The notes under the pieces are model-generated. The model ran no database searches and was not told the origin of the DNA. It saw only the letters and a list, made by a program, of their open reading frames with translations. A stretch of DNA of 64,000 bases, from assembly GCA_963832745.1 (NCBI GenBank), contig CAWHVC010000005.1:32001-96000 (forward strand), read 5' to 3'. Positions 29,667-57,433 of this stretch are shown piece by piece. This DNA comes from Candidatus Bathyarchaeota archaeon (GTDB lineage Archaea; Thermoproteota; Bathyarchaeia; Bathyarchaeales; Bathycorpusculaceae). The position numbers and the translations under genes are program-made. The stretch's first letter is position 1. Every line of letters starts with the position of its first letter.

Positions 29667-30614
29667 ATGTCAAGAAAACAGTCATGCGACAGTACATCTT
29701 ACACTGGCGGTTTCAAAATCACGGTAACCCCAGACGGAACTTTTGTTGCCATAAAAGGAAACAATATCCTAAAAGCAGCAAGCGCAGAAGAAATTAACAA
29801 TTTAATAATAATATTTAATGAGACAAACCCGCCGAAAGAAAATGATTCTACTGAATGCGGCGGCGGTCCCTTATTGAATGGGTACTTCTTTGAAATCCAT
29901 AGCAACCTGCCCCGTGAAGGCCCCGGCGACAACAAGTCAACAAGACGAGCGTACCGAATGCTCACAGATTTGCCAGAGAAACCGCGACTCTTGGACATCG
30001 GTTGTGGTCCCGGAATGCAAACAATCGAGTTGGCAAAAATCTCTAACGCAGAAATCACGGCTATGGATAATAATCAATCGTTTTTGGAAGAGCTTGCAAA
30101 AAACTCGAAGGCTGAAGGCGTAGCAGAGAAAATTAAGATTATTCAGGGTGACATGTTCTGTTTGGGTTTTGAAGAGAGCAGTTTTGACGCCTTATGGTGT
30201 GAAGGAGCCATTTTTATTATCGGTTTTGAGAAGGGGCTACACGAATGGCGCAAGTTCCTGTCTGAAAAAGGCTACCTCGCAGTTACGGAAATGTGTTTGA
30301 TAGACCCTAATCCACCCAAGGAGGTTAAGGATTACTTAACAAAAGTGTATCCGCCGATAAAAACGGTTAAAGAAAACTTGGAAATTATTAAGTCGGCTGG
30401 TTACAGTGTGGTGGGTTATTTTGTTTTGCCTGAGTCCAGCTGGTGGGAAAACTATTACTTGCCGATTCTGTCCAAACTGCCGGGGCTTAAAGCCAAGTAT
30501 CGAGCTAACAGAGAGGCTTTTGCGGTTATCGATGCTGAAGAGTTGGAGATTGAAATGTTCCGTAAATACTCCAAGCATTATGGTTACGTATTTTTTGTGA
30601 TGCAGAAAGCATAA
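29667..30614 (+). CDS. class I SAM-dependent methyltransferase
   Basis: PREGPG, LDIGCGPG, WCEGAI, YGYVFF. Confidence 0.9.
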   Translation: MSRKQSCDSTSYTGGFKITVTPDGTFVAIKGNNILKAASAEEINNLIIIFNETNPPKENDSTECGGGPLLNGYFFEIHSNLPREGPGDNKSTRRAYRMLTDLPEKPRLLDIGCGPGMQTIELAKISNAEITAMDNNQSFLEELAKNSKAEGVAEKIKIIQGDMFCLGFEESSFDALWCEGAIFIIGFEKGLHEWRKFLSEKGYLAVTEMCLIDPNPPKEVKDYLTKVYPPIKTVKENLEIIKSAGYSVVGYFVLPESSWWENYYLPILSKLPGLKAKYRANREAFAVIDAEELEIEMFRKYSKHYGYVFFVMQKA

Positions 30615-30808
30615 GACAACTTTTCTTTTTTTATCTGTATTTATGTTGGATAAGACTTCAGAATCTGAATTTTTTCGTAAGTCTTATTAGAGAACAAACC
30701 TAGTTGCCGCTTGTTGATAAAACATGCCAGCCCCCATTAACAACACAAAAACAACAATCAACCCACAAAACAAACTAACAGCCCCAGCCAGCTTGGAGGT
30801 GGACTAAC

Positions 30809-31584
30809 ATGGCAGGCACATCCGTAGCCGTCAGCGAAGCAACAAGACTGGGAGAAATAAAATTCCCCGAATTCACCTCCAAATTAATCACAGACGTTTT
30901 TGACGCCCTAATCGCTGCAAACATAAGACAAACAGAAGCCTACGTTGAACTCTTAAAAGCAGTCTCCAAATCCCTCTCAGAATACATCAACGACACCAAA
31001 GATGACATCAGCGGCGACATGGTACTGCAGTTGCTTGCAAAAGTGCTTCCAGACCCAACAAGCGAGGCAGAACCAAAGTAAGAATCGGCGCAACCTTCTC
31101 CCAAACGGACGCTGAAACATTAAACAAAGCACTCGTTGTACCCAGGCGTACAAGAAACACCAGGCATCGCCGCAACAGCAATCAACAACCAAACTGCATT
31201 AGACCAAATAATTTCAGCAGTGGCAACACGCATTGCAGCAGACAAGTATAGTTTGCTTAAAGAAATGGTAAAAATGGGTGTTTTACGGTTAGTCGTTGAA
31301 CAGGGAGTAATTGAAACCAAGTTAACTTTCACTACTTACGGTTCAACTTTCTACGAGTCAACTAAAAACAACTACAACTCCAGCTCATTTCAGTTAAAGC
31401 TAAAGCTAGAACCGGCGGATTAGCCAGCCTTTGGGTAAAAGCTTCAGCATCAACAAGCTTCACTTCAATGCATATCTCTACAGCTAAAGAAACAAACCGC
31501 GACATTTCAGGCAGCCAAGTCCAAATCTACGGTCACGTTCAAATCAACTTCAAAACAGACTACCAATCGTTAAGCACCTCCTAA
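30809..31584 (+). CDS. uncharacterised protein A of a three-gene paralog operon (frameshifted in this assembly)
   Basis: ggaggtgg RBS; joining frames near 31070, 31140 and 31390 gives about 258 aa ending IYGHVQINFKTDYQSLSTS*. Confidence 0.75.
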
Positions 31585-31600
31585 AAGGTCGACAAGAAAC

Positions 31601-32298
31601 ATGGCAACCAGCATCGCAAAAGCAACAGAATTAGGCTTTGCTGAGTTCGCCTCCACCCTTATTTCTGAAACCCTTAACGCAGTTGTCACATCAATACTAA
31701 CACAGGAAAAACAAGCCGTCCGAACTAGAAAAGCAAACATTGCTTTCACCTGAAGAATACGCGAAAGAGAACTTGACTGATGAAATAATTAGGGCAGAAA
31801 TAATGCGTCTTTTCCCTTCCAGCACAGGCAAAGAGGACAAAAGCTCCGTGGACATTGGCGAACTATATACAGTTAAGCAAAGAAACTGGCGAGTCACCCG
31901 CAATAAACGAGAAAAGTTGGTTACAAAATAATAAAAACAGACGTGACATCCCACAACCCAAAACAGACTATACATTAACCAAACAGGCTACACAACAGTT
32001 CATGCTGCAGTAAGGTTAACGTTGGCTGCTCAGCATTTGCGTTGCTTAGGCGGTTATTGCAAGGGGGATCCCACGAGTATACGTTGACAATGGCCACATC
32101 AAGTCAAAACTCATGTTAAGACTTGAAACCCAAACACCCACAACCACAAAAGCAGCAACAACGGGTTCCCGAATTGCAAGTTTAAGCCTCCCCAAACTTA
32201 TCGCGCAACCAGTCAACGCAACCAAACCAGAATTCTTAACGCTTAAAGCAGACGTTTTAAGCGAAGTTGAAATAACATTCAAAACGGTGGTACCATGA
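31601..32298 (+). CDS. uncharacterised protein B, paralog of A (frameshifted)
   Basis: MATSIAKATELGFAEFASTLISETLNAVV...RGIPRVYVDNGHIKSKL...VLSEVEITFKTVVP*. Confidence 0.72.
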
Positions 32299-32763
32299 GC
32301 ACAACAGCAAACGAGAAAAACGCTTTCTTCCTAACAGAAGCTATCCTATCAATCCACAACGAAGTCCAGAGTGCCCTAGACTACATCAGCACAGTCTCAG
32401 CAGAGGAAGGCACTGAACTTGGAAAAAGCACCGCCCTGCTAAGCATCGAAAACCTCCGCGTCAAAGTCCCATTAAAATTCAGTATTGAAACAGAAAAAAC
32501 CAAACCTGAAACCACCCCAACACGCTCATTAACCCCAGACTGAAGTAGAAGGCTGCCTTAACAAAAAGAACAGGTTTAGTGGTTGAAAGAGACTTAACCA
32601 GAAAACTTTAACATTTCAGCAAAGTCAAAATCGCCTTCAAACCTGAAGAAATCCCAACAGCTACAACAACAAGAACCGCAACAACAACCACAAAAACACA
32701 GAAACCCAGAAAGAAGAGTGGGGCGAAATCGAAATCACTTTCGCACCAATAAAACGCCAATAA
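32295..32763 (+). CDS. uncharacterised protein C (frameshifted)
   Basis: ATGA overlap with B; ends EWGEIEITFAPIKRQ*. Confidence 0.68.
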
Positions 32764-32777
32764 AGGCGACAATAACA

Positions 32778-32795
32778 CTTTTTTATTTTTTTATT
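32778..32795 (+). terminator. oligo-T archaeal terminator
   Basis: cttttttattttttatt directly after the operon stop. Confidence 0.45.
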
Positions 32796-33075
32796 AGAAA
32801 CTGAAAAAAGTTCCGGTTAAGAGTTTTCCGAACCATTTATCAAACCAACTGTTAAACATTTCAAGGCATTCATTTCGGTAAGCCGTTTCACCCGATTCTT
32901 CACGTATGCAACTGGCAAGCTCTAAATGGTTAAGGATTTCTGCTTTTGCTTCATTCAGGTTAACTTCCATGTCGTCAAGCATGTCGTTGCCACCTGCAGC
33001 GTAATCTTTAACGGAAGCCTGCAAAAACGCTCTTTTTTCTCGAATTAAATCTTCAAGTTTACCCTTTATCGCCAT
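32794..33075 (-). CDS. hypothetical protein
   Basis: 93 aa ORF with ATG and aggtg upstream. Confidence 0.6.
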   Translation of the reverse strand: MAIKGKLEDLIREKRAFLQASVKDYAAGGNDMLDDMEVNLNEAKAEILNHLELASCIREESGETAYRNECLEMFNSWFDKWFGKLLTGTFFSF

Positions 33076-33119
33076 TGTTTCAAGGACACCTTTTCAGTCA
33101 TCATAACCAAAATGATTAT

Positions 33120-33512
33120 TTAATTTTTGGTTACCTCGCTGGTTGCTTGCTGCTTGTGTTTTTCAACGTCAATGTCTTTGTTTTTGGATGAACGGAATTG
33201 GTGGTAAATAATTAGAGCCAACGAAATCAGAAGCGCAGCGGCAGCCACAGCAGAGGTAGCTCCAATGATTAGCCATGCTTGCCAAGCGGGAAGGAAAGTT
33301 TCAAGGTACCGAAGTGAACCGATTAGAAAGAACAGGGAAGCAGCACCGATAAGAGAAATTGCCACGGACATCAGGATTGTTGTGGCGATACTGAAAATTA
33401 ATAATTTTTTAAGCCGCTGTTTTAGGGCTGTTTCGGTTTCTTGGAAATATTCTTCTATTGCAGCCTTTACTTCGTTGAGAAGTTGTTTTATAATGTCTTT
33501 TAACGGCGGCAA
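33120..33512 (-). CDS. 2-TM membrane protein (holin-X/DUF1469-like)
   Basis: Amphipathic N-terminal helix, two TM with LPAWQAWLI turn, basic tail. Confidence 0.55.
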   Translation of the reverse strand: MPPLKDIIKQLLNEVKAAIEEYFQETETALKQRLKKLLIFSIATTILMSVAISLIGAASLFFLIGSLRYLETFLPAWQAWLIIGATSAVAAAALLISLALIIYHQFRSSKNKDIDVEKHKQQATSEVTKN

Positions 33513-52039: not shown

Positions 52040-53150
52040 TGACTTGATTGTAGTAGTAAGAGAAATGTAAAGATGGCTTAAGAGAAACAAGCTTTGGTTC
52101 GTTTACGTTTTCTTTGTCGTGATTGTGGTTTTAGGTTTAGTGATTCTAAAGGCTTAAATCTAGACAGCCCCTCTATGGCGTTAGCCAATTATGCGCTGAA
52201 ATTGAGGCGAAAAAATTGGACACAGCAACAGAAACAAAACTGTTGCGGGTGAATCTAAAACTCAAAGCTGACGGAAAAATCCTTGAAAATGCTTGGTGGC
52301 TAAAGAAGAACGGTAGAAGCGAATCAACCATAGAAAGCAGAGTAAAACTGTTAAAGACGTGTTAAACGAGGCGCAAATCTCAATGACCCCGAAACCATCA
52401 AAGATGTAATAGCAATGCAAACGTGGAGGCAGGAAGAAAAAACAATGCTTCAGATGCCTACTCAGCATATCTAAAAATGGTGGGTGGCAAATGGGAAGCA
52501 CCACAATACAAAAAAATCCGTAAACTACCATTCATCCCCAAAGAAAACGAAATGACCACTCATAGCTGGAAGTAGCCCACGCATGGCAGTATTCCTACAG
52601 CTACTAAAAGAGACAGGCGCAAGATGTGGAGAAATCTGGCACTCAAATGGTAAGATATAGACTTCGAAAGCAAAGTAGTCAACATTACACCTGAAAAAAA
52701 CAGCAACCCAAGAGTGCTACATCTAAGCAACAAATTCTTGAAATGCTTACAAATCTACCAAAACGGTACGGTCAAAGAGTTTTCTCGCTACCAAAAATGC
52801 GAATAGATAACTTTGCAGTAAACTTCCAAAGACAACGAAAAAGAACTATCAACATAAATTGAAAAATCCACGGCTAATAAAAATTCACTTCCACACACTA
52901 CGCTATTGGAAAGGCACTATTCTATACCATCAGTATCGTTCAGAACATGTCTAGTCATGCAAAAGTTAGGTCACAAGAACATAGCAAACACACTCTTGTA
53001 TATCCAACTCGAAGAAGCACTGTTTCAAGGAGACTGCTAATACACTTCAAAAGTAGCTAAAACTGAAAAGGAAATATGCGCTTTAATCGAAGCAGGCTTT
53101 GAGTACGTCACCGATTTTCAGGGGAGCTAAAATCTTCAAAGAGGAAGTAA
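52040..53150 (+). CDS. tyrosine recombinase/integrase with N-terminal Zn-ribbon (heavily frameshifted)
   Basis: ETGARCGE, HFHTLR, LGHKNIANTLLY across frames; KDGLR...FLCRDCGFRF at the N-terminus; ggaggtga RBS at 52016; start approximate. Confidence 0.85.
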
Positions 53151-55758: not shown

Positions 55759-55975
55759 AAGTAATTCTAAACACCAATTGTTTAAGGGATGAAAAAATTA
55801 GCGTTTTAAACGCTTGACTATAGGGCAGAAAGAACATTCATAACCGGTTTATAATTCTTTACAAGACAAGACGTCCCCAACCCCTTCTTGTCTTTAGTGC
55901 AATTAAGCAACTGTCCCTGATGAAACTAAGAAAAAAGGTAAAAACAAATAAACCATTCTAAACTATTTAATCAGC

Positions 55976-57433
55976 ATGTCTTCCCAAAAGAATTTGGCGA
56001 CAGAGGAATTTTTTTTAATCAAAACTGGTGCTTTAGACCAAATCAAAGACATCATTTTAGCAGTTGATAACCAAAACAACATTATCTACATAAAACAAGG
56101 CAGCAGCGAAATACTACAACATAGACAAAAAAAAAGCAACCAATCTTGAATTAACCAAATTATACCAAATGCAATGGTTTAATCAGAATGATGAACATGA
56201 AGCAAACATATCTCTTAAAGAAAATGGCTACTGGGAAGGCACAAACATTCAGCTATCGCCCGATGGCTCAAAGAAAGCTGTCGAATCCATCGTTAATGTA
56301 ATCAAAGATGAATCAGGCAAAAAAGTTGGTTTGCTCACAATAACTCGAGACATAACAAAAAGAGTCAATGTTGATGAATGGTTATTTGAAAGCAACCAGC
56401 GTCTAAATTACGCTCTGAAGCTGCACGTATCATGGTTTACGAAATTGACAATTTTACCCATAGAGTTATTATCGTTAGGGGCTTAGAGGAGCTTCTCGGA
56501 TACGCAATCGGTGAAGTACCCTCGACAATTGACTGGTGGATTTCTCAAATTCACCCCGATGACATCTCAAAAGCTCAAGAGCAATTTTACCCTACAAAAT
56601 CAATTGACGGCTTAGTCAACCAGTATCGTGTCAAACATAAAGACGACGGCTACATTGTTGTTGAAGGTATCGCCAAAGTTCTAAAGGATAAGTCTGGAAA
56701 AACTACAAAACACATCGGCAGTATGCAAAACATAACCGAAAGCAAAAAACTAGAGAAAATGCTTCAAGAAAAGAACGCTTAGCCACCATCGGGGTTACAG
56801 CAGGCATGGTTGGGCATGATATACGCAATCCACTGCAAGCTATGATTAGTGACGTTTATTTGCTCAAGGATGAGTTAGCTTCAATGCCTAAATGCCCTAC
56901 AAAAGAGGGCGTTAATGAAAGCATCATTAGCTTAGAGAAAAACATTGGTTACATCAACAAGATTGTTGCTGACCTCCAAGATTATGCTAAACCAGTAAAT
57001 CCTCAATGTTCTGAGATGAACATTTACGAATTAGCCAAAGATGTTTTAGAATCAGTTAATTTACCTGACAACTTGACCCTTTCCGTTAACATTGGCAAGT
57101 CTCTTACAATTATTAGCGACCCCATGCTTTTAAGACGTATTCTAACAAATTTGATTACAAATGGTATTCAAGCCATGCCTAAAGGAGGCCAACTTACAAT
57201 TGTAGCTTATGACGAAGAAAAACACTTTTAATTAAAGTTGTGGATACGGTATTGGAATCCCTGAAGATGTTAAGCCAAAACTGTTCACGCCGATGATGAC
57301 CACGAAATCCAAAGGGCAAGGCTTGGGGCTAGTTGTTGTCAAAAAGTTTGTAGAAGCATTAGAGGGCTCGATTAATTTTGAGAGCAAAGAAGGGCATGGA
57401 ACAAAATTTACTATACTGCTTCCCAAGAAATAA
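55976..57433 (+). CDS. PAS-PAS sensor histidine kinase (frameshifted)
   Basis: PAC motifs RDIT and IHPDD; H-box GHDIRNPL, N-box NLITNGIQA, DTGIGI, KGQGLGL across frames. Confidence 0.85.

Follow-up and report, generated by a model that had tools for sequence, protein, structure and literature searches.

The question raised by this locus is what is encoded at positions 30809–32763 (+) of a 64,000-nucleotide stretch of a Candidatus Bathyarchaeota archaeon genome (contig CAWHVC010000005.1), where no open reading frame (ORF) of 100 aa or more is present and short ORFs instead follow one another in changing frames. The whole stretch is referred to below as the window, and the genome from which it derives comprises 3.02 Mb in 5 contigs and is 99% complete. 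An initial annotation, made from the letters alone, had taken these ORFs for an unannotated operon of three related proteins hidden by frameshifts. The region is read here as three linked, co-oriented genes, A (~258 aa), B (~231 aa) and C (~155 aa), which constitute a genuine, widespread and uncharacterised three-gene system. The best overall explanation, to which a probability of about 0.45 is given, is that the A-B-C operon is real, that its breaks are artefactual and that its products co-assemble into a strand-paired hetero-oligomer, possibly a barrel; this explanation is unproven.

The genes are best recognised through their intact counterparts. With the first 90 residues of A as query, matches were obtained in 4 of 36 other genomes of the same genus (G008, G007, G010 and G017), each of which carries an intact A, and in none of the 24 searched genomes from other families of the order. 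The G008 locus is syntenic with the window, displaying the same methyltransferase-like gene upstream and the same small gene downstream, and the two share 89% DNA identity over 2.3 kb. There the trio is read as three uninterrupted ORFs of 258 (A), 231 (B) and 155 aa (C), while in G007 both A and B are read as intact, and intact ORFs for A, B and C are found in nine further Bathyarchaeia-type loci and in one Methanocella locus. That A, B and C are real, conserved genes is almost certain. The term unannotated is accurate for the broken copy in the window, whereas the intact orthologs are publicly recorded as 'hypothetical protein'; likewise the frames are broken here as had been stated, most likely through an assembly defect of this genome, the G008 copy being intact.

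The signals of tight linkage that the initial annotation had listed, namely a ribosome-binding site, a 16-bp gap, an ATGA overlap and an oligo-T tract, are all present, and the peptides that it quoted are all found in their frames. The stop codon of A (TAA, 31582–31584) is separated by 16 nt from the ATG of B (31601), the TGA of B and the ATG of C overlap as ATGA at 32295–32298, and the stop of C (TAA, 32761–32763) is followed by T-runs at ~32778–32796. As read from the sequence, this layout is one of tight translational coupling of three co-oriented genes.

A BLASTP comparison of A with B (E 2e-14, 28% identity), reinforced by hhalign alignment of their C-terminal parts (probability 97.8%, E 9e-13), identifies the two proteins as paralogs, as had been claimed. 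The relationship had been extended to all three proteins, and for C this does not hold beyond the terminal strand motif, through which alone C appears to be tied to A and B, wider homology being unproven. Thus BLASTP finds no similarity between C and A and yields just a 6-residue match between C and B (E 0.51, the terminal E-[VI]-E-I-T-F), and hhalign aligns B with C over 37 columns at a probability of 24% (E 8e-4).

The family to which A and B belong is large. In a 90%-clustered collection A displays 450 homologs at E <= 1e-3, the best 120 of which are all without a Pfam domain and, if they have a name at all, are called 'hypothetical', and a combined A and B profile recovers 1391 representative clusters at E <= 1e-3, 797 of them at <= 1e-10. 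No characterised family, the ordinary explanation against which the proposal had been set, matches the module: hmmscan of G008 A, B and C against Pfam gives no significant or above-cut-off match, NCBIfam profiles give nothing for the three proteins, and searches of the PDB by fold give no significant match. A family of more than 1000 clusters has neither a Pfam model nor a solved structure. No paper on it was found by a literature search aimed at the possible relatives DUF2589 and Trypco2 and not at the family itself.

Several candidates were considered and rejected. The best PHROGs match, to a tape-measure family (E 0.0015), was set aside as helical or low-complexity noise, and the best sequence match in the PDB, a bacteriocin immunity protein (E 0.047), is not significant. 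A Pfam scan of 54 A and B members at E <= 10, in which 25 of 30 matching families were inspected, gave weak rows for KARI_C, a VP16-like capsid protein and DUF3591, all below their cut-offs. Fused longer forms of A were searched for and none was found, which is weak evidence; no Pfam domain stands above its cut-off in 19 longer members of the superfamily, one of which gives a Peptidase_S41_N row below the cut-off (E 0.0031, 18.1 bits versus 26.6).

A scan of one genome per species gave 72 loci, distributed over Bathyarchaeia, Methanocella, Desulfobacterota, Thermodesulfobacteriota, Kangiella, Alteromonas, Bacteroidales, Chlorobiaceae, Clostridia, Acidobacteria, Planctomycetes and others, and A is 50–100% identical to G008 A at 63 of them. 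The genes are kept together in archaea and bacteria, a point that the initial annotation had proposed to check. A is followed by B at 63 of the 72 loci under strict ORF clustering (67 when BLASTP to G008 B is used). At those 63 loci, C comes third in 22 cases and a longer protein, C' (~237 aa), in 35; an A-B pair followed by C or C' is thus observed at 57 loci, at 36 of which B overlaps the third gene. C and C' have an N-terminal helix-strand module in common (hhalign probability 84%, E 7e-6), and C' contains an extra region with weak, sub-threshold helix-hairpin-helix matches. The next commonest neighbour cluster is a histidine kinase (11/72), and no further conserved neighbour of the module is found among the 72 loci.

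Other genes were seen in the surroundings of individual copies. A papain-like (Peptidase_C1) gene lies within a few genes of the module at 5 of the 72 loci, including L024, L027, L035 and L022 from Desulfobacterota/Thermodesulfobacteriota, and is the sole protease seen near the core module; the flanks of the module in the window contain no protease. Four plasmid records carry distant relatives of A at 27–29% identity. In one of these, the Burkholderia pyrrocinia megaplasmid pBPJTT (L082, 392191–406997), four places match A at ~27% identity; the region that was read contains a run of unnamed genes, followed by a 1151-aa protein combining a zinc ribbon, a guanylate cyclase, AAA_16 and TPR, and by a patatin-like phospholipase; this gene layout is typical of conflict systems, and as a single case it is a lead only. 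A distant member of the superfamily in Tolypothrix adjoins an S8 peptidase.

The three proteins display the layout that had been described for them, as supported by AlphaFold2 models and alignments: an amphipathic helix lies at the N-terminus, a long β-strand follows, and after an insert that is variable and rich in Ser/Thr the chain returns in a C-terminal strand. In the model of A (mean predicted local distance difference test score, pLDDT, 68) the helical part, residues ~20–160, is mostly confident (pLDDT ~72–93), and strands 166–177 and 237–248 flank residues 177–238, where the pLDDT falls below 50 and conservation ranks with the highest in the alignment. Such a combination would be expected if the region folds only within an oligomer. 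The model of C (mean pLDDT 63) consists of helix 13–38 and a four-stranded sheet. The long strand 54–69 is followed in the sheet by two others, and the last strand, 143–149, returns after a Thr-rich linker that is disordered. The terminal strand carries an alternating motif, VQIxFKT in A, EVEIxFKT in B and EIEITFxP in C, with a conserved [IV]-x-[IV]-x-F, and all three proteins end 3–8 residues after it. No signal-like N-terminus is present in A, B or C, in agreement with the initial annotation, nor is there a cysteine, and hydrophobicity stays below transmembrane level throughout (Kyte-Doolittle maximum 1.02, 1.21 and 0.85, respectively). A, B and C are soluble proteins, and none has an enzyme domain.

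In the mechanism proposed, tight translational coupling would allow A, B and C to be made in fixed proportion, and the long conserved strands, together with the common terminal strand, would mediate co-assembly by pairing between subunits, leading to a hetero-oligomeric ring or β-barrel with the helices packed outside, in which C and C' would be interchangeable as the third subunit. The proposal is modelled on the layout of DUF2589-type gene pairs and on the pre-assembled 9–10-mer barrels reported for Pepco/Trypco2, and the assembly could serve as a membrane pore of the Pepco kind, as a lysis-like effector or device, or as a purely structural cytoplasmic particle. Co-assembly of the three products is judged slightly the better of two nearly even possibilities, and that the assembly takes the form of a barrel or pore is doubtful. 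Complex prediction for A, B and C with B as the partner gave 0.02 against a mark of 0.32 and was counted neither for nor against binding.

The alternative that survives best, itself doubtful, is a cytoplasmic assembly of structural function only, such as a filament, sheet or cage, that acts neither at the membrane nor in defence. Structural proteins that self-assemble through many interfaces are typically conserved to an extreme degree, and A retains 50–66% identity between archaea and bacteria, from Bathyarchaeia to Proteobacteria. The solubility of the proteins, which lack transmembrane segment, signal peptide and cysteine, fits this alternative, as do the strong ribosome-binding site, the tight gene coupling, the dispensability of accessory genes and the finding that INPHARED phages and IMG/VR viral contigs contain no relatives of A. 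Set against these points, no fold match to a known cytoskeletal, cage or shell protein was obtained, and the swap of C for C', with its weak helix-hairpin-helix matches, would be left without explanation.

An unlikely alternative makes the module a latent pore-forming defence effector resembling Pepco, that is, a pre-assembled barrel whose trigger, a protease or another factor, is encoded elsewhere and which kills the infected cell. The domains Trypco1 and Trypco2 were described, and so named, as co-occurring with trypsin in conflict systems (eLife 2020;9:e52696), and Pepco (Trypco1/2) is reported to form a constitutive, denaturation- and SDS-resistant 9–10-mer β-barrel that becomes a pore-forming toxin once its protease removes the C-terminal tail, the cut falling after a conserved Ile (preprint 10.1101/2025.11.14.688446). 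Such an activation by cleavage of a pre-formed barrel would suit proteins that all end just past the conserved [IV]-x-[IV]-x-F strand, and Trypco2 and DUF2589 clusters are among the predicted-structure neighbours of C in the ESM Atlas. The distribution of the module is sporadic and resembles horizontal transfer, distant members stand beside the cyclase-AAA_16-TPR and patatin genes of the Burkholderia plasmid and the S8 peptidase of Tolypothrix, and the papain-like gene occurs nearby at its 5 loci. The plasmid contexts are single cases at 27–29% identity, however, and further results weigh against this alternative and also against a defence or pore role within the preferred co-assembly explanation. 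No protease, NTPase or sensor is conserved beside the core module at the 72 loci, where the initial annotation had suggested looking for proteases and NTPases; PADLOC-DB 2.0 (5027 models) contains no family matching A, B, C or two C' proteins at E <= 1; no relatives of A were found in the phage and viral collections named above; and the cross-domain conservation of A is unusually high for a defence effector. In addition, the Trypco2 hidden Markov model (HMM; cut-off 24.2 bits) gives no match at E <= 0.01 in any of five module-carrying genomes, different from the five searched for DUF2589, and hhalign aligns C with Trypco2 over 17 columns only, at a probability of 17%.

A further reading, likewise improbable, dispenses with the protease: A-B-C/C' would be a self-contained hetero-oligomeric β-barrel, a new class of pre-assembled pore or nanocontainer, in which A and B alternate around the ring and C or C' caps or gates it. 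Such a barrel would have a distant kinship of design to DUF2589 pairs and Pepco and would have remained near-unchanged from archaea to bacteria, and the helix-hairpin-helix module of C' could tether it to nucleic acid.

Whether the source organism makes these proteins depends on the nature of the breaks. Relative to G008, the three frames in the window are broken by 17 indel events, of which A has 3, B has 8 and C has 6. A single base is involved in 16 cases and two bases in the other; all the sites lie outside long homopolymers, and they have no motif evidently in common. The breakage by indels thus stands as initially described, although 17 events give more pieces than the six short ORFs that had been counted. 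Read in the frame of G008, A, B and C give ratios of non-synonymous to synonymous substitution rates (dN/dS) between window and G008 of 0.069, 0.121 and 0.044, respectively, compared with 0.097 and 0.085 for the two intact flanking genes, and third codon positions hold 54 of 70 differences in A, 34 of 54 in B and 44 of 54 in C. When changes were polarised with the outgroup genomes L012 and L013, the window branch displayed 51–56 synonymous and 14–18 non-synonymous changes and the intact G008 branch 47–53 and 19–21, with the same third-position bias on both branches. These values indicate that purifying selection acts on A, B and C.

The breaks are also confined, to an extent well beyond chance. 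A per-gene tblastn frame test, adopted in place of whole-window blastn indel counts (in which the flanks, ~81% identical, produce compensating alignment gaps), shows that, of the 35 genes of the G008 syntenic block with a counterpart in the window, A, B and C alone are distributed over several frames. Of the other 32, 29 give a single match in one frame, and the remaining 3 are neighbouring paralogs that cross-match, each with its own whole ORF. Beyond them, a PAS/PAS/HisKA/HATPase sensor kinase gene at 55952–57430 (+) (matched at ~56.1–57.4 kb) is broken over at least 4 overlapping frames, and a search for its close ortholog in 60 same-genus genomes gave only 64–87% identical, paralog-like matches. 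It suggests patchy consensus errors in the assembly, and may be another patch of poor consensus or a pseudogene. Because dN/dS is low, selection is not relaxed on the window branch, the breaks are localised and a second gene is broken, the 17 indels are probably local consensus or assembly errors, a view drawn from evolutionary signal and not from reads; the organism therefore probably makes all three proteins.

Some observations stand against an artefact. No same-strain read or contig spans any indel in the public runs found, and the one contig identical to the window (30620–30883) ends before the first of them; moreover, 17 errors within 1.95 kb of an otherwise clean 33-kb block are odd for random error and would call for a local cause. 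Public runs cover little of the stretch: no more than 0.12 of the sampled words occur in any of four metagenome runs, and no RNA run is listed. Two contigs, both from relatives, lack the extra bases of the window at 31144 (run X1) and 31719 (run X4).

The contrary possibility, that the operon is truly dead, a first inactivating mutation having relaxed selection on all three genes before 17 real indels accumulated, is unlikely. It draws on the limitation of the breaks to exactly three linked genes, with 32 other syntenic genes unsplit, as operon-wide decay predicts, on the dispensability of a module present in just 4 of 36 other same-genus genomes, on the finding of no second intact copy elsewhere in the source genome, and on indels unlike the homopolymer type typical of nanopore errors. 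Neutral decay giving 17 indels should, however, add several-fold more substitutions, spread over all codon positions. That excess is not seen: dN/dS is as low as in the intact flanking genes, and the non-synonymous changes of the window branch do not exceed those of the G008 branch. Programmed ribosomal frameshifting, supported only in that the pieces join into full-length proteins on a change of frame, can be dismissed, as the orthologs read as intact (the G008 trio, A and B of G007 and ten further loci) need no frame change, 17 sites in both shift directions with no shared slippery motif would be required, and a search of 30000–33500 with Rfam gives no match. The broken frames, being probably an assembly defect, are to be polished and not annotated as pseudogenes.

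The features of the locus are collected in Table 1. The arms of the 9-bp inverted repeat are also kept in G008, and the repeat could act as a terminator of the upstream gene or as an operator; the oligo-T tract is likely an archaeal-type terminator common to the convergent downstream gene.

Table 1. Coordinates of the A-B-C locus in the window and of its intact counterpart in G008.
Feature	Position	Strand	Description
Upstream intergenic region and leader	30615..30808	+	inverted repeat, A/C-rich leader, Shine-Dalgarno-like GGAGGTGG; aligns with G008
Perfect inverted repeat, 9 bp	~30651-30688		ATAAGACTT ... AAGTCTTAT, 20-nt spacer; between methyltransferase gene and A
Shine-Dalgarno-like GGAGGTGG	30795-30802	+	seven bases before ATG of A (30809); read directly
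Gene A	30809..31584	+	~258 aa read through; 3 one-base indels near 31070, 31144, 31391
Gene B	31601..32298	+	~231 aa, paralog of A; 8 one-base indels near 31719, 31873, 31916, 31948, 31992, 31998, 32037, 32052
Gene C	32295..32763	+	~155 aa; 6 indel events near 32538, 32548, 32549 (two bases), 32602, 32618, 32698
Oligo-T tract cacTTTTTTATTTTTTTATT	32764..32800	+	after C; read directly
Intact A, G008	L003:1501-2277
Intact B, G008	L003:2294-2989
Intact C, G008	L008:2184-2651

Downstream, a convergent neighbouring gene (33120–33512, −) encodes a small membrane protein, whose G008 ortholog (L010:10303-10710) matches Phage_holin_3_6 (Holin-X) with 32.9 bits against a cut-off of 28.4, the window copy reaching 22.3 bits; this holin-like gene is linked to the module at 4 of the 72 loci, all in the closest archaeal relatives. 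Farther downstream, synteny with G008 is absent at 45.4–48.9 kb and 51.7–59.3 kb. At 52150–53037 (+), within a low-GC (36.5%), ORF-poor stretch, three short ORFs in different frames appear by eye to be pieces of a tyrosine-recombinase/integrase gene and have no Pfam match at E <= 0.01. Beyond its broken frames the window itself is nothing special; the family, in contrast, is a good and cheap target for structural and functional work, the module consisting of three genes in ~2 kb that encode soluble proteins and exist as intact natural copies, such as that of G008, so that it can be tested directly.

Three families were compared with the module. The N-terminal helices of A (residues 21–78) give weak matches to DUF6323 (PF19848) in 41 of the 54 members scanned; the best E is 0.0021, the first member scores 13 bits against a cut-off of 30.6, which is below any threshold, and that family is likewise uncharacterised.

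The likeness to DUF2589 (PF11655) and Trypco2 (PF19631), which the initial annotation had pointed out, is a real lead and the best available, whereas tests with HMMs and profiles give no membership. For the comparison, 22 DUF2589 and 7 Trypco2 members were fetched. DUF2589 proteins display the same order of elements: an N-terminal helix with an A-x-x-x-A-Q/N-like face precedes a central strand, and after an insert rich in Ser/Thr the chain returns in a further strand. Alignments of the C-terminal part of A and of C with DUF2589 are collinear. The gene arrangement is also similar: 10 of 12 DUF2589-positive genomes contain two hits 0.1–1.4 kb apart, comparable to the adjacency of A and B, and a further small gene often lies between or beside the paired genes; the tandem-paralog operon of DUF2589 is our own observation and not a curated criterion. 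Two divergent types, often with a gene of ~90–117 aa between them, were seen at the DUF2589 loci L094, L100, L101/L110, L103/L112 and L105/L111. At some DUF2589 loci amidase- or lysozyme-like genes are adjacent, as judged by eye, which would fit a lysis-type role. In Archaeoglobus fulgidus a run of short DUF2589-related genes is reported to be induced on lactate. Among Atlas neighbours, the predicted structure of C retrieves a DUF2589 cluster (template modelling score, TM, 0.53/0.38) and a cluster that is 60% DUF2589 (0.49/0.47), and the rank-8 feature neighbour of A is a cluster of which 19% is DUF2589, all of these being under the bar of the tool. DUF2589 proteins differ in ending in a PEGLxRxLD helix, which A and B lack, and in having no counterpart of the ~90-residue helical insertion of A and B, and one Atlas DUF2589 cluster is half viral whereas A has no viral relatives.

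Taken together, the following results weigh against the DUF2589/Trypco2 link. The DUF2589 Pfam model (cut-off 23 bits) gives no row for G008 A, B or C in hmmscan at E <= 1, nor does the Trypco2 model, and the DUF2589 HMM gives no match at E <= 1 in six-frame searches of 5 module-carrying genomes; neither DUF2589 nor Trypco2 is among the 25 families inspected of the 30 that match A and B members, and five C and seven C' members have no Pfam match to either. With hhalign, probabilities against the DUF2589 and Trypco2 sets range from 0.1 to 35%. Against the 22 DUF2589 members they reach 13% for A, 0.5% for B and 0.8% for C, and the best alignment, of the N-terminal helix of A with DUF2589 type 1 (35%, E 4e-4), is not significant either, the collinear alignments giving 3% (C-terminus of A) and 0.9% (C with type 2); the control comparison of DUF2589 type 1 with type 2 gives 98.9%. 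All Atlas neighbour rows for A and C lie under the bar. The comparison of folds with DUF2589 decides neither way: our own models have a pLDDT of 63–68, and the PDB searches turned up no solved DUF2589 structure.

The comparison with Trypco2 and Pepco concerns the subunit and the assembly. Trypco2 is a small alpha+beta protein whose start helix, L-x-E-x-I-x-x-L-x-x-E-L-x-x-A, resembles that of C (LTEAILSIHNEVQSA); long strands follow, the last of which ends in a conserved hydrophobic residue and Pro, and an Atlas Trypco2 cluster aligns with C at TM 0.41/0.57, again under the bar. Beside Trypco2 genes a protease of the serine or cysteine type is reported, in most cases as a fusion with a sensor (eLife 2020;9:e52696; 10.1101/2025.11.14.688446). 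Pepco, as reported, is a single 117-aa gene beside a sensor-fused trypsin-like or cysteine protease, in contrast to the module, which consists of three genes, two of them encoding 230–260 aa, has no conserved protease and shows no evident cleavable tail in A, B or C. The constitutive oligomeric barrel reported for Pepco is the kind of assembly that is proposed for A-B-C. If the co-assembly explanation is correct, a family of more than 1000 clusters would gain a structural hypothesis tied to the recently described barrel-forming Pepco pore effectors and to the DUF2589 pairs, a group as obscure as the family itself, and a single 'helix plus long-hairpin' oligomerising design may underlie the module, Pepco and DUF2589 alike.

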